Below are positions 2,613-55,295 of a stretch of DNA of 64,000 nucleotides, piece after piece. This DNA is from a virus. The notes under the pieces were generated by a model. It was not told the DNA's origin, searched no databases, and was given only the letters and a program-made list of their open reading frames with translations. The stretch spans positions 306 to 64,305 of IMG/VR virus record IMGVR_UViG_3300036802_000013; one strand, 5' to 3'. How positions within the stretch are numbered: the stretch's first letter is position 1; every line of letters starts with the position of its first letter. The position numbers were made by a program, and so were the translations under genes.

Positions 2613-3362
2613 ATGGAACGGCAAGTACATTACGTAAAAGAAGTACCGAAGGAGCTAGTAGTAGATATGCTGCACAAGTTCCATTATTCGAAAGTATTAC
2701 CACGCATTAACAAAGTATTTCTAGGAGGATACAACGACAAACACGAGCTAGTCGGAGTTATGACGCTAGGGTGGGGTGTAAGACCACTACACACGATACG
2801 AAAGTTATTCCCGTCTTTAGAAAGTAAGGATTACTTCGAAATCGGACGCATGGCACTCGACGATAAATGCCCGAGAAATTCAGAGACGCAGTTCATGTCT
2901 TTATGCAATAAGTACGTAAAACAAAACTACCCGCATGTTAAGGCTATTTTTACATGGGCGGACGGAATGCTCGGTAAGGCTGGGTACGTATACCAAGCAG
3001 GCAACTTCCTATACGGGGGCTTTTCGTGGACAGATTCGTATTTCACAGATACAGGCGAGAAGGTACACCCACGAATGATAGTGAGCAAGCGAGGCAGCCG
3101 ACCAAAGTATGAAGAGGTTAAAGCGGCTGGGTGGAGTCACTACAAAGGCAAGCAGTTCCGATACATTACTTTCTTATGTTCGAAGACCGAAAAGAAGCGA
3201 CTCATACGAGAAAGTACCGTTACATGGACGATTAAAGGTGCGCCAAAAGAGCATGATCTTGCGTGGAAGGTAAAAACAGACGACGGCTGGGTTTTATCAG
3301 AGCGACCATTCTACGACAAACAAAGTACAAACTTCTATAAATCAAAAAAAGATAAATCGTAA
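2613..3362 (+). CDS. Mom-family (GNAT-fold) DNA adenine modification protein
   Basis: HYSK, EIGRM, PRNSE and TWADG..G..G.VYQA.NF.Y.G motifs typical of Mu Mom homologues. Confidence 0.75.
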   Translation: MERQVHYVKEVPKELVVDMLHKFHYSKVLPRINKVFLGGYNDKHELVGVMTLGWGVRPLHTIRKLFPSLESKDYFEIGRMALDDKCPRNSETQFMSLCNKYVKQNYPHVKAIFTWADGMLGKAGYVYQAGNFLYGGFSWTDSYFTDTGEKVHPRMIVSKRGSRPKYEEVKAAGWSHYKGKQFRYITFLCSKTEKKRLIRESTVTWTIKGAPKEHDLAWKVKTDDGWVLSERPFYDKQSTNFYKSKKDKS

Positions 3363-3441: not shown

Positions 3442-4818
3442 ATGACAAAATACACAGGATACCAAGCAATCGAATTAATTAACAATGGGATTAGCGTAGC
3501 GGAGGAAAAAGCGCCACATATCGAGTACTTCAAAGACGCATCAGACAACGTAATTAAAACGTTCAATAACCGTACAGGTAATGTAGAGGCAGTTATGCAG
3601 CTATCAGAGTTCTTAAATAAAGAGTTCGTAACGGTAATGGATTTATTAAAAGTAGGCGAGTACGTGAAAGTAGCGCACGGTGGTAATGGATTCTCGAAAG
3701 AGGGCGACATTTTACAGCTTAAAAGCGTATCGGGCGTTGGTGGATTCGAAACGAAGAAGCTAGACGGAAAGTACGGTGGATTCAAATACACATACAACTT
3801 AGTACGAGCTACAGATGCGGAAGTGTTAGCAGCAAAGCAATCGTTATTAAAAGAGGGCGGTCTTGCAAAAGTAATCGCTAATACAAATAATCACGAGTTC
3901 CCTATCGGAGAAATCGTTAAGTTAGAAAAAGAAAGACGCAAAGGAACGGCAGACGTTTACTTTAAATCTTACTATCTTGACGGTCACGACTGGTGGTGTG
4001 TGCGCCCTACGGACTTACTTCCGTTAACAGCCGAAGAGGTTGCGGAAATGGAGCAGAAAGAAAAAGAGGAAAAGGAACGCAAAGAGAAAGAAGCAGCAGC
4101 GAAAAAGCTACGTGAGCAACAGGCTGCTTTAAAAGTAGGCGACATCGTGAAAGTACTCGAAAACGGCTCGCACGGGTTTAAAGCGGGCGACGTACTTCGC
4201 ATCTACGATATCGTGAGCTATGGTCAGAATCAGATTCGCTGCGAACGCTTAGACGGCAAACGAATCAGCAAAGACTACTTCTATAACTCAGAGCTAGCGT
4301 TAGCTACAGATGCGGAAGTGTTAGCAGCGAAGAAAGCGCTACTAACGAAGGGCAGCTATGTAAAAGTGACTTGCCGAGGTTTTAACACAAACGTACAAGT
4401 AGGCGACATCGTAAAAATCGTAACTAACGATAGCTCTCGCATTCCTTTCGAAATCGAAACGCTAGAGGGCAAAGAGTTAGGCTGGATTCCTGCGGCAGAC
4501 GTAGAGCCAGTAACAGATGCGGAAGTAAAAGAGTCGAAAGCTAAGTTAGAAGAAGAGCGCAAAGCAGAAGAGCTTCGTAAGAAGTGGGACGAAATCGGTC
4601 GAGAAGTAGGCGAAATCAAAGCGGGCGATATCGTACGAGTTATCGCACGAGGTTCATCAGACTTCAAAGTAGGCGAGCTTGCTACTGTACAAAGCGCATG
4701 TAAGAAAGTCGCACACTTAACTAATGAGCGTGTTAAATCGCACAACGCTAACTGCCTAGCTCTTAAACGTTTCGAGTTAGTAGTGCCAGTAGAACAACGC
4801 TTCGACAAAACAGCGTAA
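3442..4818 (+). CDS. Modular hypothetical protein with repeated SH3/KOW-like beta domains
   Basis: Repeated (L/I)K(V/A)G(D/E).V(K/R)V starts and ATDAEVLAAK linkers; identical 27-bp DNA repeat at 3807-3833 and 4302-4328. Confidence 0.7.
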   Translation: MTKYTGYQAIELINNGISVAEEKAPHIEYFKDASDNVIKTFNNRTGNVEAVMQLSEFLNKEFVTVMDLLKVGEYVKVAHGGNGFSKEGDILQLKSVSGVGGFETKKLDGKYGGFKYTYNLVRATDAEVLAAKQSLLKEGGLAKVIANTNNHEFPIGEIVKLEKERRKGTADVYFKSYYLDGHDWWCVRPTDLLPLTAEEVAEMEQKEKEEKERKEKEAAAKKLREQQAALKVGDIVKVLENGSHGFKAGDVLRIYDIVSYGQNQIRCERLDGKRISKDYFYNSELALATDAEVLAAKKALLTKGSYVKVTCRGFNTNVQVGDIVKIVTNDSSRIPFEIETLEGKELGWIPAADVEPVTDAEVKESKAKLEEERKAEELRKKWDEIGREVGEIKAGDIVRVIARGSSDFKVGELATVQSACKKVAHLTNERVKSHNANCLALKRFELVVPVEQRFDKTA

Positions 4819-7552: not shown

Positions 7553-7684
7553 TTGACATGTTTAAAGTGTCGGTATTAAGATCGAAAACGTAGACAACGA
7601 ACTACACGACCTATCAAAAGGTCGATGCGTCATGGACGAAGAAAAGCGCATCCACAGCGAAAACAAAACGAAAGAGGTAATGAC
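7553..7684 (+). promoter_or_regulatory. SigA promoter with operator and long structured leader
   Basis: TTGACA 7553, TAAGAT 7577, GTAG-N8-CTAC hairpin 7590-7605, two further hairpins, AAACGAAAGAGG RBS. Confidence 0.7.
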
Positions 7685-8027: not shown

Positions 8028-8071
8028 AAACGAAAGGGCGCAAAAGCCTAATAAAAACAAGGGGTGACGCA

Positions 8072-13136: not shown

Positions 13137-13220
13137 TTGACATGTTTACGCTATTAGTTTAGTATAAGGAACGTAGACAACGAACTACACAGCGAATACA
13201 AAACGAAAGAGGTACATAAC
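13137..13220 (+). promoter_or_regulatory. SigA promoter with conserved cassette leader
   Basis: TTGACA-17-TAGTAT, GTAGacaacgaaCTAC 13173-13188, AAACGAAAGAGG. Confidence 0.75.
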
Positions 13221-13460
13221 ATGGCGAAGAAAGACAAGTTAATTGAAAAGGCAATGCGCAAAGGTAAAACGATGAAAGGCACGGAGCTTCGAAAAGTTGC
13301 CGAGGCGTACGGCTGGTATCGTGACCCACAGCAAGGTAACGCTACTTCTCATAAGCATTGGATACACGACGAATACGACCATAAAGTAACGATAATGGCT
13401 CGTGACCATAGACCGAAAGAGGTAGAGGGGGTACTAAAACAGCTACGTATAATTGATTGA
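13221..13460 (+). CDS. hicA: HicA-like mRNA interferase toxin
   Basis: Basic 79 aa; EL.K.AE.YGW...TSH...H...VTI..H pattern. Confidence 0.65.
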   Translation: MAKKDKLIEKAMRKGKTMKGTELRKVAEAYGWYRDPQQGNATSHKHWIHDEYDHKVTIMARDHRPKEVEGVLKQLRIID

Positions 13461-14361: not shown

Positions 14362-14441
14362 TTGACAGCGTGCGCCTTTCAGTGTAATATAATAAACGTA
14401 GCAGGCGAGCTACTAGAAAGCATACGAAAGAGGTCGTACAT
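14362..14441 (+). promoter_or_regulatory. SigA promoter with conserved cassette leader
   Basis: TTGACA-17-TAATAT, GTAGCaggcgaGCTAC 14398-14413, ACGAAAGAGG. Confidence 0.75.
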
Positions 14442-19463: not shown

Positions 19464-19549
19464 TTGACATGTTAAAGTTGTCAGTGTAATATAATAAACG
19501 TAGACAACGAACTACACAGCGAAACTAAAAACGAAAGAGGTAATTACAA
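19464..19549 (+). promoter_or_regulatory. SigA promoter with operator and conserved cassette leader
   Basis: TTGACA-17-TAATAT; TGACA-N9-TGTCA; hairpin 19500-19515. Confidence 0.8.
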
Positions 19550-20296: not shown

Positions 20297-20436
20297 TTGA
20301 CATGTTCAACGTGTCAGTGTAATATAATAAGCGTAGGGTGCAACGAACACCACACAGGGCTATCGAAAGCCCGCTGCGTCATGGACATAGAAAAGCGCAG
20401 CACACAGTAAACTATAAACGAAAGAGGTAATCACAC
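20297..20436 (+). promoter_or_regulatory. SigA promoter with operator and long structured leader
   Basis: TTGACA-17-TAATAT; TGACA-N9-TGTCA; leader homologous to 7590-7684. Confidence 0.8.
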
Positions 20437-20934
20437 ATGAAATTTTCAATCACATTAGCAAACTTAGGAGTATACAACGAGGGCGAGTTACACGCAGAAA
20501 GCATTCTCTTCCCAGCAGAAACGAAAGAGGTTGCAGCAGCGTATAACCGAGTATCATATAGCGGAATGAATGACGTAATTATCATATCTGATAACGCACC
20601 ATTCGAAATTCACCAATACGAGCAGCTAGCAGTTTTAGAGCGTATCGGGAATCTCGACGAAGATACATACGAAGCATTCCTAATCCTAGCGAATCATATG
20701 TCACTTAACTTAGCTTGCGAAATGGCACGCCGCAATGAGTTTCGCATCTACCGAGAGGTGAAGGACGTAGGCGACGTAGCTTATCAAATTCTACAAGAAG
20801 ATGCAGACTTTCAAGAGCTGCCCGACTTCGTAAAACGTCACTTCGATTACGACGGATACGGCGAAGAGCTGGAAAGCGAATCTTCTTTCTATGAAGACTT
20901 TGCAAACGAAGCGCTTTTAGTAATTCATGATTAA
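20437..20934 (+). CDS. ardA: ArdA antirestriction protein (type I R-M DNA mimic)
   Basis: ANLG.YNEG.L, very acidic, ..HFDY..YG.EL C-terminus. Confidence 0.8.
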   Translation: MKFSITLANLGVYNEGELHAESILFPAETKEVAAAYNRVSYSGMNDVIIISDNAPFEIHQYEQLAVLERIGNLDEDTYEAFLILANHMSLNLACEMARRNEFRIYREVKDVGDVAYQILQEDADFQELPDFVKRHFDYDGYGEELESESSFYEDFANEALLVIHD

Positions 20935-21063: not shown

Positions 21064-21759
21064 ATGGAAACTAAGAAATTCTTATTCAATCGTAACGGCA
21101 TCAAAGTAGGATACGACAAAGCAATAGAGCAGCCTAGCGTGGACGTGCTAAAGAATACGCCTGCATTATGGAATGCTTCACTACAGGACGCACTAAAGTA
21201 CGGTGGCGAGCTTACAAAAGCTGCTATAGGTGCGATGAATCTGCGCCACGATAAAAAGTACATCGTAGTAGATACAAAGGTACATATGCTTATGCCTAAC
21301 ATGTGTCCAGCTATTCCAAATTGGCACAGCGACGGCGTACCACGAGGCAACGAATTACGACCCGAAGCGAAAGCAGCACCCGACATCTTCGCACAGGACT
21401 ATATGCGAGACAGCCGTTTCCATTTACTCGTGACAGGTGAAGGCTGCCTAACCGAGTTCATTACGAAGCCCGTCGAACTGGACGTACCAGCAGAGCCAAA
21501 TACGGCGCTATACGGAATGGTTAACAAGCAAGTAAGGGAAATGGTAGCAGCAGGCGAATTAGACGTATTCACAGCGCCGTCGTGTACGGCTATCGAGTTC
21601 GATTGGTTCGATATTCATAGAGGCGTGCAGGCAACTAAACACGAATGGCGTTACTTAATACGAGTAACAGAAACCGACCACATGCCGCCGCAGACGGATT
21701 TACGACAGGTATTACGTACGCAGCAACAAGTATATGTACCGACTGATTTCGGATGGTAA
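21064..21759 (+). CDS. Putative 2OG-Fe(II) dioxygenase-fold protein
   Basis: WHSD (HxD) ... IHRG ... WR; start after RBS GAAAGAGG. Confidence 0.55.
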   Translation: METKKFLFNRNGIKVGYDKAIEQPSVDVLKNTPALWNASLQDALKYGGELTKAAIGAMNLRHDKKYIVVDTKVHMLMPNMCPAIPNWHSDGVPRGNELRPEAKAAPDIFAQDYMRDSRFHLLVTGEGCLTEFITKPVELDVPAEPNTALYGMVNKQVREMVAAGELDVFTAPSCTAIEFDWFDIHRGVQATKHEWRYLIRVTETDHMPPQTDLRQVLRTQQQVYVPTDFGW

Positions 21760-24805: not shown

Positions 24806-24862
24806 TTTCTTCCTATTATATAGACAACGAAAAAAAGAGCGGTCGCTATTAAGCGCCGCTTT

Positions 24863-25054
24863 TTATTTTGCCGACTTTCTTCGACGTATCCTGCGTTCTG
24901 TTACAATTGCTGCACCGACTGCGGTAGATACCAGCAGGAAAATTACGGCGATAACATCAACGGCAAGGCTATCGAACTTAGACGAGACGCCGACGAATAC
25001 CAGCGCTACAGTTAGTACCGCTAACATTGTTAGAGTTATTTTGTCTTCGCTCAT
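24863..25054 (-). CDS. Two-TM small membrane protein with basic tail
   Basis: Hydrophobic 63 aa ending RRIRRRKSAK. Confidence 0.55.
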   Translation of the reverse strand: MSEDKITLTMLAVLTVALVFVGVSSKFDSLAVDVIAVIFLLVSTAVGAAIVTERRIRRRKSAK

Positions 25055-25141
25055 AATAATAATGTGTAAGACGTACAGTGCCGTGTTATACTAGTTAGTA
25101 AGTACACCGCCCAGTATTGCGAGTACCGAGCGGTATATGTC

Positions 25142-25312
25142 TTACTTGTCTTGCTTATTGCGATTGAAAGAGATGTTAATTTCTATGTAGTTCTCTTCTT
25201 TCTTACGCTTGACACTTACACTAAAGTCTTTCAGTAAAAAGTAAACTACGATTACTGTAAGAGCAGGTGCATTAACTTTTGCTAGGTCTACTAGCGCCTG
25301 TACGTCTAACAC
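25142..25312 (-). CDS. 56-aa single-TM peptide
   Basis: RBS AAAGGAGG, GTG start, MLDVQALVDLAKVNAPALTVIVVYFLLK...; SigA promoter TTGACA (25390) / TATACT (25366). Confidence 0.6.
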   Translation of the reverse strand: MLDVQALVDLAKVNAPALTVIVVYFLLKDFSVSVKRKKEENYIEINISFNRNKQDK

Positions 25313-25469
25313 AAGATAACCTCCTTTCGTTGGTTACTGTACTCTTTCGAGTACTTACATAGTATAACACTAATAGCGTGAACATGTCAACAGGTATTTT
25401 TATGCCTGTTTTGGCGTGCCTTTATACTACTTATTATATACGTATCGTTCGTATTTTATTTAAAATAAT

Positions 25470-26670
25470 TACTTTCGACTATACACGTTTTACCTTATTA
25501 GAAGCCTAAGGGAACGCCTATAAACGAATAGGGCGATATATGTAGCCGAATAAATGTGCGTTAAATGTACGGTAAATGTTCGGTATTAGCGCTATGTGTA
25601 TGAGCCTACATTTCTGTAATTATTACGCTATCATTTACGTTAATAATACGATCCTCTTTTAGCTAAATGATACGATAAATGATGCGTTAAATGTAGCGAT
25701 AATAGGCGTTACTCTAGCGCTCAATGTAAACAAATAAGATAGGTCGATAAATGTATGTTAACCAAGCGCTATAATGTACGCAGATAGGGCGGTATATATG
25801 ACCGCATATTATAGTATCTAGATATAGGGCGATACGTTGGGACAGTAGGGCGCACCATGTACGCATAGGGCTATAGGGTAGGGCGATATACCACGGCATG
25901 TATAGGCGGTATATGTGGGCGCTATGTGTACGGGCATACCGTTTACGTACGATTACAAATAGAAGGATTAACGGGAATGTATCGCAGGCTATTACCTACC
26001 GTTATGTGTGCGTTATGTGTACGCTGTGTCTATGCGGTATGTGTATGGGCTATGGGTATACGTGGGCGTACGGTATGTGGGTACGATGGTATGCGATGGT
26101 AGTACGTGGGTGTGTGGTGAGCGTGGTGTGTGCGTGAAGGATTACTATTCTATTTCATCTGCTCGCCGTCTCGCTGAGGAAGGACACTGAAACTCGGGGG
26201 GTCTTCGAAGTTGTCAAGTACTTTCTTTATGCAACATCTTATTCATTCGAAAGTATATTCAAGAAGTATAATGAACGTTGATATTAAAGCATTCTTCTTC
26301 GTGCATAAACGAATTGTAAATAAAGTATGAATGTAAAAGCGTCTCGAATCCTTTAACAGCAACGATTCAAGCGAATTGACGAATGAAACAAAAGGTCATT
26401 GTGTTGCATTCAGCATACAGAAAACTTGCATACTCATTCATCGAGCCAATCGAACCCGAAGCGAAAATGCCACGCCCCCCAAGCCACCACCACCAGCCCC
26501 CGCAACTGCTGTACGAAAACTACGCAATATATTTTCGAACTCGGGGCGTAACAGTCGATAATACCTGCCGCATACTCTCCGTAAACTCATACAGTCAACT
26601 TCGTTATACACTACGAAAGACACTACGAATACACTACGACACTCTCTCACTATACATTCAGCGCTAACAA
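25470..26670. repeat. Non-coding, strand-asymmetric short-repeat region (possible packaging or terminus region)
   Basis: TAAATG repeats ~25550-25700, TAGGGCG repeats 25530-25890, GT-rich 26000-26135, C/A-rich 26470-26650 with CACTACGA x3. Confidence 0.6.
26381..26411. other. Putative tyrosine-recombinase resolution site
   Basis: GAATGAAACAAA-aggtcat-TGTGTTGCATTC (12-7-12 imperfect dyad); matching half-site TTGTGTTACATTC at 28635-28647 near the recombinase promoter. Confidence 0.55.
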
Positions 26671-51606: not shown

Positions 51607-51849
51607 ATGAAAGCACATGCTAAAGAACTAGCAAAACGCTTTCTGAATAAGGGTACACTATTAGCGGTGGCGGCGCTCGCTGTAAAGCAGGCGCTAGCCG
51701 CTGGGTATATCCCGACGCAGGAAGTAGCAGACAGTATTCTAACGGTCGTAGACTGGGCGCTTAATGCGGCAATGATGGCTGGGTTTATCAATAACGCAGG
51801 TATCGGCGCAGGCTTCCGAGACGTACCGAAAGAACAGCCGCAAGGCTAA
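51607..51849 (+). CDS. Holin
   Basis: 80 aa, two hydrophobic segments, after the endolysin. Confidence 0.7.
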   Translation: MKAHAKELAKRFLNKGTLLAVAALAVKQALAAGYIPTQEVADSILTVVDWALNAAMMAGFINNAGIGAGFRDVPKEQPQG

Positions 51850-51858
51850 AAGAAGACA

Positions 51859-51900
51859 GAAAAAAGCCCCTACGCCAACGAAACGTAAGGGCTTGTCTTT
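51859..51900. terminator. Bidirectional intrinsic terminator
   Basis: A run, agcccctacg-loop-cgtaagggct hairpin, T-rich tail. Confidence 0.75.
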
Positions 51901-52050
51901 TATAAACGAAAGAGTATTAATACATGCGTTCTACAGCAGCTTGCGAGCTAATAAAAACACACGAACATTTTGTATCCACAGCGAAAATTCTAAATACGAA
52001 AAGGTAATTCGTTATTTTATTTGCGCCGTAGAACCGCTGTATTAACTTAC
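51860..52050 (-). ncRNA. Candidate multi-target antisense sRNA
   Basis: Minus promoter TTGCAA (52086) -18- TGcTATACT (52062), long closing stem, terminator, no substantial ORF; four 13-15-nt matches to gene leaders. Confidence 0.6.
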
Positions 52051-52126
52051 ATACGTAGTATAGCATACCCTATCCGCCTATTGCAACGGTTAATTTCTCT
52101 ACTTATATTGTAGTACGTGAAATTAT

Positions 52127-52237
52127 TTACGCAGTCAGCGGAAAATAGTTGTTGACATATTCAAATTGTCAGCGTAACATAGAAAACGTAGACAACGAGC
52201 TACACAGCGAAACTAAAAACGAAAGAGGTTATTAACT
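52127..52237 (+). promoter_or_regulatory. Operators, SigA promoter and conserved cassette leader
   Basis: TTACGC-N5-GCGGAA 52127; TTGACA-17-TAACAT; TGACA-N9-TGTCA; hairpin 52188-52203. Confidence 0.75.
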
Positions 52238-52435
52238 ATGTCATTACCAATTGATTACGCAACTATCATCTTCTTCACGGGGGCTATCTCATGTTTAGCG
52301 GGTCTAGTCTTCGGATTACTTGCGAAAGACTACTATATCAGTGCGAAACACAAGGCGAAAGAAGATGCGAACATGCAACAGACTAAAAAGTACTACGCAT
52401 CTAAAGGCTTACAAAGTTACTACGAAGGGCGCTAA
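52238..52435 (+). CDS. Single-TM small protein
   Basis: Conserved RBS; terminator follows. Confidence 0.65.
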   Translation: MSLPIDYATIIFFTGAISCLAGLVFGLLAKDYYISAKHKAKEDANMQQTKKYYASKGLQSYYEGR

Positions 52436-53065: not shown

Positions 53066-54073
53066 TATATGAACGAATACGACGAGCTTAAACAGTTCGA
53101 AACGAAAGAGGAAATGAACGAATTAGTAAAGGCGGTACGTTACCACTTTGCAGACGAACTAAATACGACAGCATTAGCGGTACTAGATTACGTATCACAG
53201 TACGCAGTAACGGTTTTAGGAGTTGCTAAACTAAAAGTAAAAACTATCGCAGACGCTATCGGAAAGAGTGTGCGTACAATTAACTACGTAACAAAACGTC
53301 TACATGATCTATCTATTTTAACTAAGGTCGAAACGACTAGAAAAGTTAAAGGCGGAGACGGCGCAAACGTGTATGTAATTAACGCAAATTCTATCACTGA
53401 AAAGCAGGAAGTTGCAGAGGGTTTGCAGGGGGATTGCAGTGCGGGTATTGCAGTGCGACCAGTAAGCGAAACACCTACGGAGAGTAAGGCGGAAGAGGCG
53501 AAAGTGGAAAATGAAACTCTTTACTCTCTTAAACCCCTTCCTAAAACCCTTAATAAAACATTAAAAGATATCGAAAAGAATAATAATACTAATCTAGTTA
53601 AGAGTATAGAACTAGAGGACGAGCCATTATTCGCAGATACTAACAAGTTTTTACGAATCGCTTACGCTGGATTAACTAGCGTTGAAGGTAATCAAATTAC
53701 TAAAAGACTAGTAACAGCGTTCAAGAAGTCAGAGCTTTCTATGTCTACTAAGTGGACTCTACAAGAATACTGCGCACAAAACGAAGACTTTGCTAAAGAA
53801 CTAGGCGAGCGTGTAAGCCTATGTGTACGTAAACACCGTAACGGAGATATTGACACAACGTTATATGGCTATATCTATACAGCAGCAGTTAAATACTTTA
53901 AAGACCACGTAACGCTAGTAGAAGGCAAGCTAACGGAATCTAACGAAGAGGTAGACTTTATGGCATCACCGTTCACACAACGCATTCTAAGCGCTAAGAT
54001 TGAGCGCCCTGTATCATTCGTAGCACCTTTACATAGCACTATCGAAATCAATAACGACGAGTTACCGTGGTAA
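53045..54073 (+). CDS. Plasmid-type HTH replication initiator (Rep-like)
   Basis: wHTH TIADAIGKS.RTI....K.L ... G.GANVY; adjacent to parMR. Confidence 0.7.
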   Translation: MSIQGAFYMNEYDELKQFETKEEMNELVKAVRYHFADELNTTALAVLDYVSQYAVTVLGVAKLKVKTIADAIGKSVRTINYVTKRLHDLSILTKVETTRKVKGGDGANVYVINANSITEKQEVAEGLQGDCSAGIAVRPVSETPTESKAEEAKVENETLYSLKPLPKTLNKTLKDIEKNNNTNLVKSIELEDEPLFADTNKFLRIAYAGLTSVEGNQITKRLVTAFKKSELSMSTKWTLQEYCAQNEDFAKELGERVSLCVRKHRNGDIDTTLYGYIYTAAVKYFKDHVTLVEGKLTESNEEVDFMASPFTQRILSAKIERPVSFVAPLHSTIEINNDELPW

Positions 54074-54240
54074 ACGGATAACATCTGATAACTTTCGCTA
54101 ACTATCGACAAAAGGTACATAACGGTATTTAGCGAAAGTTAATAACGAATATGATTTAAGCGCTTGACGAAATTAACGATACGTAGTATTATTTACTTAA
54201 CGTTGATATTCCACAGCGGAAGTTAACAGAACATAATATT
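54070..54240. promoter_or_regulatory. Putative centromere (parC) and parM promoter
   Basis: TAAC half-sites at ~10-bp spacing; 13-bp inverted repeat TAACTTTCGCTAA / TTAGCGAAAGTTA. Confidence 0.5.
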
Positions 54241-54266
54241 TGATAATTGAATAGGGGGAACTACAT

Positions 54267-55295
54267 ATGACAGTTTATGTAGGCGTTGAAGCAGCAAACT
54301 CTTTCGTAAAGGCAGCGACGGTAAACGAAGAGCTATGCTACCTAAACACGTTAAGAAGAGTTGAATCATTCGAGGACACTGCGGGACTTACGACATACTC
54401 ATACGAGGGTGTTAACTACATCATCGGCGAAGAGGACGGCGTAAGTAGTAGCGCACGTAATGATGACCGTTATGCAAGCGCAGGCTACCGTACAGAGACG
54501 ATGTTAGCAGTTGCTCAATTGGTTAACGATGGTGACGAGGTAGTACTAGGTACAGGTTTACCGAGCGAAGACTACAAGAAAGAAGATAATCACAAGCGAG
54601 CGAAACGCAACCTAATCGGAACACATACGGTACGAATCGGAAACGAAGAGAAGACGTTTACTGTAGTACGTGTGTATACACCTATGCAGCCTATCGGCTC
54701 AGTAGTTAATCGTATTTACGACTATAACCTTACTATCCGTAACGGCATGGAATGGGAGCGAAACGCACGCAAGCTAGTAGTAGATATCGGATTCGGTACG
54801 ACTGACGTAGCGGAAGTTAAAGGCTTACGTACAATTCGTTACGATGGCGTACAAGTCGGAATGATGGAAGCAAACCGCATCATTAAGGACGAGCTAACGA
54901 AGCGAGGCGCTACAGGTATAGTGTCATTCTTGCACATGGATTACCTGCTGCGACATGCTAAGATAGAAACGGCTAAAGACGAATTTACAGGCAAAGAGAT
55001 TCCGACGAAGGTAACAATAGAAACAGGCGGTAAAGAGTACGAGATTAAAGAACTTATGGAGCAGGCACTAGAGTACACAGCACGATTAATTATGCAGCGT
55101 GTAGACAATCTAGGGTACGTCCTAAAGGGTTACGATATGGTTTTATTCACAGGCGGCAGCTTACTAGCTCTACACGGCTACATTAAGCCTTACTTAGAGG
55201 GCGTTAATACAAAAGCCGAGCAAGGAGCGCAAACAGCTAACGCCAAAGGGTACGCTAAATATGCGATGATTCAAGACGCAAAAGCAGTAGCTTAA
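54267..55295 (+). CDS. parM: ParM/StbA-like actin segregation ATPase
   Basis: TGLP, QP.G, VDIGFGTTD, FTGGS, ANAKGY. Confidence 0.85.
   Translation: MTVYVGVEAANSFVKAATVNEELCYLNTLRRVESFEDTAGLTTYSYEGVNYIIGEEDGVSSSARNDDRYASAGYRTETMLAVAQLVNDGDEVVLGTGLPSEDYKKEDNHKRAKRNLIGTHTVRIGNEEKTFTVVRVYTPMQPIGSVVNRIYDYNLTIRNGMEWERNARKLVVDIGFGTTDVAEVKGLRTIRYDGVQVGMMEANRIIKDELTKRGATGIVSFLHMDYLLRHAKIETAKDEFTGKEIPTKVTIETGGKEYEIKELMEQALEYTARLIMQRVDNLGYVLKGYDMVLFTGGSLLALHGYIKPYLEGVNTKAEQGAQTANAKGYAKYAMIQDAKAVA

Follow-up and report, generated by a model that had tools for sequence, protein, structure and literature searches.

A candidate anti-leader small RNA gene built from cassette leader copies in a Bacillus cereus-group plasmid-prophage

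Introduction

What is encoded, if anything, by an element of about 200 nt that sits between the lysis operon and the plasmid-maintenance region of a plasmid-prophage? The question is raised by the IMG/VR virus record IMGVR_UViG_3300036802_000013, a viral record of 64,305 bp that has direct repeats at its termini. We analysed 64,000 nucleotides of it (positions 306 to 64,305), here called the window, which is nearly all of the record and has almost all of its genes on the plus strand. A sequence-only reading of the window had proposed that the minus strand of the element encodes a small RNA (sRNA) that is antisense to the leaders and ribosome-binding sites (RBSs) of several accessory genes. We give about even chances to the reading that 51897-52100 is an anti-leader sRNA gene on the minus strand, the product of which pairs with the leaders of the accessory gene cassettes.

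The window is collinear with p2, a circular plasmid of 61 kb from Bacillus thuringiensis HM-311 (identity 65-89%), and, more distantly, with the B. mycoides plasmid pl62 (identity 64-79%). The accessible text of a study on the plasmid-prophages of the B. cereus group lists 'plasmid p2 from B. thuringiensis' in 'Group 2' together with pBwiPL1-3 and pBWB403 and does not contain the words 'antisense' or 'small RNA'; its supplementary tables may list further Group 2 members (PMC8026635). A homologous-protein search for further relatives gave four clusters. Full sequences of the element were aligned from the window, p2 and the metagenome contig L009 and are near-identical. The contigs of four runs, X2, X6 and X8 among them, provided partial data on variation, which carry no information on strand or ends, and pl62, pBwiPL1-3 and pBWB403 were examined as three distant relatives.

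Results

Predicted promoter and terminator on the minus strand

The sRNA gene is a prediction from the sequence, and its promoter is a consensus match; of the nine runs listed, none is on record as RNA. The promoter scan recovered the minus-strand promoter that the sequence-only reading had described, with TTGCAA at 52086-52081, a spacer of 18 nt and TATACT ending at 52057 with TG ahead of it. All three elements retain the -35 hexamer and the extended -10 at a distance of 18 nt, although the spacer sequence and the flanks on either side have diverged. An overlapping promoter candidate on the plus strand, TTGCAA-17-TATATT, loses its spacing in p2 through a deletion of 3 nt.

The proposed terminator was also found by the terminator scan, as a hairpin from 51894 to 51864 with 13 pairs, a loop of 5 and the tail TTTTCTGTCT, and it was called on the minus strand only. 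Folded as minus-strand RNA, the hairpin reached -21.2 kcal/mol (z -5.2), compared to -13.3 kcal/mol (z -2.9) as plus-strand RNA. It is stronger on the minus strand because the G.U pairs that the minus RNA forms turn into C.A mismatches in the plus RNA. From the sequence, a self-contained transcription unit on the minus strand is likely, with its own promoter, its own terminator and a structured, conserved body, and we consider it quite probable that a minus-strand transcript exists.

Fold of the predicted RNA and absence of a conserved reading frame

The whole predicted RNA folds with -60.4 kcal/mol (z -5.1), whereas the plus-strand RNA of the same region folds with -44.1 kcal/mol (z -3.0). 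For the body the values were -39.3 (z -3.85) versus -28.3 (z -2.2). The long stem that had been proposed between 51917-51934 and 52028-52045 was present in the single-sequence fold as well as in the consensus fold. The sole substitution in this stem (52034) hits a bulged base, and an insertion behind 51924 in X2, X6 and X8 also falls on a bulged base. In the seed hairpin, the change T51995C retains the pair (A-U to G.U) on the minus strand only. The sequence changes spare the structure as it is predicted.

It had been stated that the stretch contains no substantial open reading frame (ORF). This was not correct for the window itself, where ORFs of 49-50 amino acids (aa) are found on both strands, but it holds in the comparison, since indels in the relatives break them. 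A minus-strand ORF of 49 aa was rejected because it begins inside the -10 and is frameshifted in p2. A plus-strand ORF of 27 aa (51924-52007) was rejected for its two nonsynonymous changes, one synonymous change and shifted stop in the comparison with p2, for the missing RBS in p2 and L009, and for the ATG that is disrupted by the insertion in X2, X6 and X8. Judged by these alignments, no ORF in the element survives the comparison with the relatives.

The search of Rfam gave no family at threshold for the predicted sRNA, and the weak matches rest mostly on the terminator. The top minus-strand matches were RF02452 (the Bacillus sRNA ncr1575) with 28.2 bits, compared to a gathering threshold of 60, and RF00121 (MicC) with 24.3 bits, compared to a threshold of 90. 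Membership in both families was rejected; what aligns is for the most part the terminator and A/U-rich sequence.

The element contains copies of cassette leaders

A cassette is repeated on the plus strand of the window and precedes single unrelated genes. It consists of TTGACA-17-TATAAT, a short GTAG...CTAC hairpin, CACAGCGAAA, AAACGAAAGAGGTAAT and the ATG. Besides these type-1 cassettes there is a second type of leader (Table 1). The number of cassettes differs between the relatives, with 6-7 in the window and 3-4 in p2, including a decayed copy at p2rc 21416.

Four segments of the element had been claimed to equal leader sequences elsewhere, and all four were found. The segment TATAAACGAAAGAG at 51901-14 equals 20413-26, the RBS of a gene (20437-20934) that encodes ArdA (Pfam E 3.2e-16), and gives four matches with at most one mismatch where 0.06 are expected. 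Its 11-mer core AAACGAAAGAG occurs nine times in the window, always on the plus strand, where 0.17 are expected. Six of these sites lie directly before cassette starts, one is the element's own and two are coding (20519 in ardA, 53100 in rep). The segment CGAGCTAATAAAAAC at 51944-58 equals 13541-55, and 12 of its bases are also present at 8048, whereas ATCCACAGCGAAAA at 51974-87 equals 7650-63 and AATACGAAAAGGT at 51993-52005 equals 13985-97. The four exact matches exceed the shuffled expectation. The five longest exact matches that the region has elsewhere in the window measure 15, 14, 14, 13 and 12 nt; all of them are plus to plus and lie in leaders.

Local alignment gave three leader-derived pieces, all in plus orientation. 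The first, 51900-51926, is a copy of the junction from RBS to ATG in the ardA cassette and aligns to it over 27 columns with 1 gap and 3 mismatches; 51934-51965 is a copy of a type-2 leader, and 51974-52010 is a copy of the 3' half of a type-1 leader including the RBS. By these alignments, the matched segments are paralogous plus-strand copies of the leaders that the phage's own cassettes carry. Descent therefore explains, without selection, why a minus-strand RNA is complementary to the leaders.

Another cassette gene had been named as hicA. Its Pfam match (E 7e-5) stays below the cut-off, but it matches a PHROG 'toxin' family (E 3.9e-8), and its product is called HicA-like here. At ~21416-21480 of p2 (reverse complement), the homologue of 13172-13225 in the window, the RBS of the cassette before the HicA-like gene is mutated (AAACGAAATAGG) and there is no ATG at the expected place; the cassette looks decayed. 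The leaders at 7606-7656 and 20354-20404 carry an extra insert of ~50 nt with two hairpins between the GTAG...CTAC hairpin and CACAG, which is also present in the ardA leader of p2.

Predicted pairing with the cassette leaders

Targets were scored with 36-nt duplexes and the opening energies of both partners, from -60 to +20 of each called plus-strand gene. A comparison of the whole RNA with 70-nt windows by RNAduplex was dropped, as it gave meaningless long looped duplexes. Cassette leaders took the top four of the 85 start regions, and the cassette genes ranked 1, 2, 3, 4, 5, 7, 11, 12 and 20. The top cassettes had net energies from -18.0 to -10.9 kcal/mol, where the median of the 85 was -4.9. 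In the control with shuffled sequences, six of the nine cassette targets beat all 71 dinucleotide shuffles. Summed over the cassettes, the energy was -123.1, compared to a shuffle mean of -45.1 (standard deviation 13) and to -26.8 for the plus-sense control. With the RNA of p2, the three cassettes of p2 ranked 1-3 of 82, and the next value was -12.0.

The main pairing region, site 1, is weakly folded (-8.4 kcal/mol, z -0.86) and spans CACAGCGAAA through GAGGTAA. The pairing that is conserved is an imperfect duplex of 30 nt between sRNA nt 43-77 and the type-1 leader, and a pairing of nt 85-118 with the type-2 leader. The ardA leader of p2 has a 13-nt match to site 1; the ardA leader of the window has lost it and is matched by the linker of the RNA instead. 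This apparent swap of the pairing site is suggestive but anecdotal.

A partner outside the cassettes is the leader of ParM (54209-54225; p2rc 277-304), which carries TCCACAGCG and is mid-ranking, with rank 8 of 85 in the window and 4 of 82 in p2. This pairing may be fortuitous, or it may point to a connection with the control of partition.

Conserved RNA gene or recombination scar

The core of the element (51917-52046) is 93.8% identical to p2. The average identity is 80.9% for the genome (54,205 aligned bases) and 78.5% for noncoding DNA. It is the third-best non-overlapping one of 3,406 wholly noncoding intervals. The conservation is patchy, with the terminator, the body, the -10 and the -35 kept and the linkers between them diverged. 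Parts without leader homology are conserved too, namely both arms of the stem, 51957-51973 and 52008-52027. The patchy pattern fits selection better than recent transfer.

The main rival explanation reads the region as a recombination scar, a gene-less remnant of one or several promoter-leader cassettes that lost their payloads by leader-leader recombination, with a chance promoter and no functional RNA. In favour of a scar, the region aligns piece by piece, in plus orientation, to a junction of RBS and ATG and to parts of both leader types, and the cassettes are repeated and vary in number between the relatives. Segment 1, the ardA match, varies among the relatives like neutral sequence. Shuffling has been described for the PeSLs of T4-type phages, which are promoter plus stem-loop borders of gene cassettes (PMC2839356 and PMC4122927, as far as their accessible text goes). 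A scar would be expected to drift, yet this is the third most conserved noncoding stretch, its conservation includes the parts that have no leader homology, the promoter hexamers and their spacing are kept around a diverged spacer, and the minus strand has the clearly stronger form of the terminator. The sequence-only reading had itself named a decayed plus-strand cassette leader as the case against it. The region turned out to be built from leader copies, but the pattern of conservation argues against a scar, which we regard as unlikely, though by no means negligible.

Several observations weigh against the reading as an anti-leader sRNA gene. The -35 agrees with the consensus in no more than 4 of its 6 positions, and its distance from the -10 is 18 nt. 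None of the 65 predicted pairs shows a compensatory change, with only three near-identical sequences alignable, as would also be the case for a scar. The core is conserved but not unique, since 2.7% of 50,791 130-nt intervals equal or exceed its identity to p2. Of the four exact matches, three are window-specific: neither p2 nor L009 has segment 1, and p2 lacks the exact partners of segments 2 and 3. The proposed row of four seeds is thus not conserved, although the antisense relation to the leaders holds, also in p2. The best single shuffle reached a summed energy of -103.6, and complementarity by itself proves no function. Finally, all elements that carry the RNA belong to one subclade, and the co-occurrence of RNA and leader types therefore counts once.

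The distribution was followed in the distant relatives. The whole element of ~200 nt is absent from pl62, pBwiPL1-3 and pBWB403 (3 of 3), and therefore the promoter, the body and possibly the terminator would have arrived together in the subclade of the window and p2. The lysis terminators of these three plasmids differ from that of the window and have their T-run on the plus strand in each case. A replication origin or another essential site was rejected as an explanation because the three relatives lack the region.

The evidence base is small, with one subclade of two complete genomes and fragments. What stood of the multi-target sRNA is a likely minus-strand unit and a complementarity to leaders and RBSs that goes beyond the controls; the complementarity as such is expected from paralogy. 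We conclude that the sequence contains a plausible, computationally coherent phage sRNA gene that is limited to one small subclade.

The neighbouring genes and a possible narrower, antitoxin-like role

The element follows a gene of 80 aa that comes after the amidase gene and has a PHROG match of unknown function only; we take it to be a holin gene. Downstream of the element lies the gene of a 65-aa membrane protein, which is driven by a promoter-leader cassette and followed by a Rep-like gene and then ParM. The 65-aa product has a hydrophobic N-terminal stretch and a charged tail and no family match in Pfam or PHROG. An alignment search with this protein found one locus in metagenome contigs, L009, and no relatives in genome contigs and viral contigs. 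The holin-like protein had no relative in viral contigs, and the canonical leader pattern had no match there.

This arrangement allows the RNA to be read more narrowly as a type I antitoxin-like sRNA, either for the divergent 65-aa gene, as IstR-1 is for tisB, or for the convergent lysis mRNA, in the manner of bsrG/SR4 or SprA1. The leader of the 65-aa gene ranks 3 of 85 among the targets here and 2 of 82 in p2, but leaders that are 30-45 kb away pair equally well or better. In all three RNA-carrying elements the RNA adjoins the 65-aa gene, whereas pBWB403 keeps a homologue of the gene (with the same C-terminal ...KGLQNYYEGR) without the RNA, so that the two are not inherited as a pair, and pl62 has a different small membrane gene at this place and no RNA. 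The hydrophobic stretch and the charged tail would suit a toxin, but the protein is a putative toxin only and belongs to no Pfam or PHROG family. On the lysis side, the RNA and the mRNA of the holin-like gene run towards each other into a common hairpin, so that their 3' ends are complementary over ~35 nt, but the start region of the holin-like gene is outside the best 25 of 85. We judge this narrower role to be improbable, since the 65-aa gene is present without the RNA in pBWB403 and distant cassettes pair as well.

A mobile repeat of the miniature inverted-repeat transposable element (MITE) or bcr type without an RNA role, for which the core would be a 130-bp element with 18-bp terminal inverted repeats (51917-34 and 52028-45) that is an insertion relative to the distant relatives, is nearly excluded because the element is single-copy in the window genome; besides, a core 23-mer had no exact match in 185,579 species genomes, two core patterns had none in viral contigs, and the 241-nt region matched a single record, a plasmid, among 72,556 plasmid and 50,697 phage records.

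Other conserved sites

Between the sRNA promoter and the cassette promoter of the 65-aa gene lies an operator-like box, (A/G)GTACGTGAAATTAT(T)TACGCA, an imperfect palindrome that six related plasmid-prophages retain with hardly any change ahead of their first promoter after the lysis genes. It is near-identical in p2, L009, pl62, pBwiPL1-3 and pBWB403, thus including the three without the sRNA module, where the conserved box lies within ~20 nt after the lysis terminator. In the window it is single-copy at up to 3 mismatches. The box is probably a protein-binding operator.

A further motif of ~30 nt, CAT.AAACATCTATCTCC.AAA...CGACAA, is common to pBwiPL1-3 and pBWB403 (L015 ~2690-2720, L016 ~2683-2715), where it lies between the last lysis gene and the terminator; it is absent from the window and p2.

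Three other regions stood out in the comparison with p2. The 1.1 kb at 24806-25897 contain no called gene and include the most conserved noncoding interval (24807-24936, 96%). Among all 130-nt intervals, 53666-53795 ranked first (99.2%) and 54238-54367 third (97.7%). One of the latter two is internal to rep; the other covers the gap in front of parM together with the parM start. They are candidate cis sites (origin, centromere).

Table 1. Positions of the predicted sRNA gene, its candidate targets and its neighbours (window coordinates unless stated otherwise; energies in kcal/mol)
Feature	Position	Strand	Basis and remarks
-35 hexamer TTGCAA of the putative sRNA promoter	52081..52086	-	promoter scan; TTGCAC in p2, TTGCAT in L009
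Extended -10 TGcTATACT	52057..52065	-	promoter scan; identical in 3/3 elements
Predicted sRNA, ~188 nt	51862..52049	-	5' end placed ~7 nt past the -10
Long closing stem, 5' arm	52028..52045	-	both folds; begins a few nt from the presumed 5' end
Long closing stem, 3' arm	51917..51934	-	single-sequence and consensus folds
Predicted anti-leader site 1, sRNA nt 43-77	51973..52007	-	antisense to type-1 CACAGCGAAA...ACGAAA(G)AGGTAAT including the Shine-Dalgarno
Predicted anti-leader site 2, sRNA nt 85-118	51932..51965	-	antisense to type-2 leaders (GCGAGCTAC...ACGAA) and the 13541 leader
Single-stranded linker CUCUUUCGUUUAUA	51900..51915	-	antisense to the ardA RBS; not in p2, L009
Intrinsic terminator, common to the convergent lysis operon	51864..51894	-	terminator scan; identical in p2, L009
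Type-1 cassettes	~7589, 13172, 19499, 20332, 52187	+	before single unrelated genes
Type-2 leaders (GTAGCAGGCGAGCTAC...)	~14398, 19928	+	second leader type
Predicted target, leader and RBS of gene 19550	19514..19544	+	rank 1/85; hybrid -31.5, net -18.0; reached by 0/71 shuffles
Predicted target, leader and RBS of gene 7685	7649..7681	+	rank 2/85; hybrid -32.2, net -17.5; reached by 0/71 shuffles
Predicted target, leader of the 65-aa gene 52238	52202-52230	+	rank 3/85; hybrid -29.2, net -15.9
Predicted target, ardA RBS (gene 20437)	20412..20427	+	rank 4/85; hybrid -18.9, net -15.2; pairs with the linker
Predicted target, type-2 leader of gene 14442	14397..14429	+	rank 5/85; hybrid -38.1, net -13.7
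Predicted targets in p2			ardA homologue -18.9; 65-aa gene -18.8; type-2 cassette -14.1
Promoter TTGACA-17-TAACAT of the divergent cassette, with the type-1 leader before the 65-aa gene	52152..52237	+	promoter scan, alignment
Operator-like box GTACGTGAAATTATTTACGCA	52113..52133	.	between the sRNA promoter and the cassette promoter
Copies of the box	window 52113-52133; L001 ~3698-3718; L009 ~1599-1619; L014 3758-3778; L015 ~2787-2807; L016 ~2779-2799		
80-aa gene, read as holin	51607-51849		upstream of the element, follows the amidase gene
65-aa membrane protein gene	52238-52435	+	downstream of the element

Discussion

In the proposed mechanism, a constitutive sigma-A-type promoter (TTGCAA, 18 nt, TGcTATACT) would start an RNA of ~188 nt near 52049, which would be closed and protected at its 5' end by the long stem nearby and would end at the hairpin 51894-51864 with a U-run. 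The body of this RNA would have been assembled from plus-strand leader copies, which are the type-2 leader, the 3' half of the type-1 leader and, in the window phage, a remnant of an RBS-ATG junction. A minus-strand RNA from such a body would therefore be antisense to the shared 5' leaders of the cassettes. Its weakly folded apical part would pair with CACAGCGAAA...GAGGTAAT, hide the Shine-Dalgarno sequence and block the binding of the ribosome, and the second site would likewise pair with the shared cassette leaders. The translation of ArdA, of the HicA-like toxin and of several small membrane proteins would be lowered, and a single RNA would restrain the whole set of cassettes regardless of their payload. 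If the transcript exists, an action on the leaders is, from the modelled pairing, rather probable.

Classic examples of phage sRNAs that regulate the phage's own genes include P1 c4, P4 CI, lambda OOP and P22 sar, each of which acts on one operon. The c4 RNA has a single target operon, from the transcript of which it is itself processed, and the CI RNA of P4 is comparable to c4. The predicted RNA of the window is similar to the c4 RNA of the P1 immI region in that both would be small trans-acting antisense RNAs of a plasmid-prophage that carry copies of their own target-leader sequences and block expression. It differs from c4 by its own predicted promoter and terminator, by its orientation opposite to the targets and by up to nine dispersed single-gene cassettes as targets. 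The host is Gram-positive, and there is no sequence relationship. The repression of Ant synthesis in trans by the antisense immunity RNA c4 of P1 is described in the accessible text of PMC8546580.

With the predicted RNA, the complementarity to the 5' leader of an adjacent, divergent gene for a small hydrophobic putative toxin is like that of IstR-1 and tisB. In the layout of that type, an sRNA gene is divergent from a small membrane-protein gene and has limited complementarity to the 5' leader of this gene. Here, in contrast, the complementarity is common to many distant cassettes, and a relative keeps the membrane gene without the RNA.

The repeated borders of promoter and stem-loop beside single unrelated genes resemble the PeSLs, and they could mediate the shuffling of the accessory genes that they flank; the sRNA body derives from such borders, and the element itself has no payload gene. 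In the accessible text of PMC2839356 and PMC4122927, PeSLs are modules of recombination and expression at the DNA level, and no antisense RNA from PeSLs is mentioned there. In the literature that was searched we found no sRNA of this kind described for the plasmid-prophages of the B. cereus group.

The predicted RNA would act on a dispersed and mobile family of single-gene cassettes through their shared leader, and its origin is still readable as leader copies that were captured behind an opposing promoter. If this is true, it shows a post-transcriptional control that is coupled to modular gene shuffling, and it gives a handle on the expression timing of anti-restriction, toxin and membrane 'moron' genes in the plasmid-prophages of the B. 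cereus group. More tentatively, and with less than even confidence, the RNA may serve as a 'master key' that holds antisense copies of both leader types. Accessory genes that arrive in a standard cassette would then come under control automatically, as members of a plug-and-play RNA regulon. The RNA of a resident plasmid-prophage could also silence the early cassettes, including ardA, of a superinfecting related phage, which would be an RNA-based immunity directed at shared leaders instead of a single repressor target.

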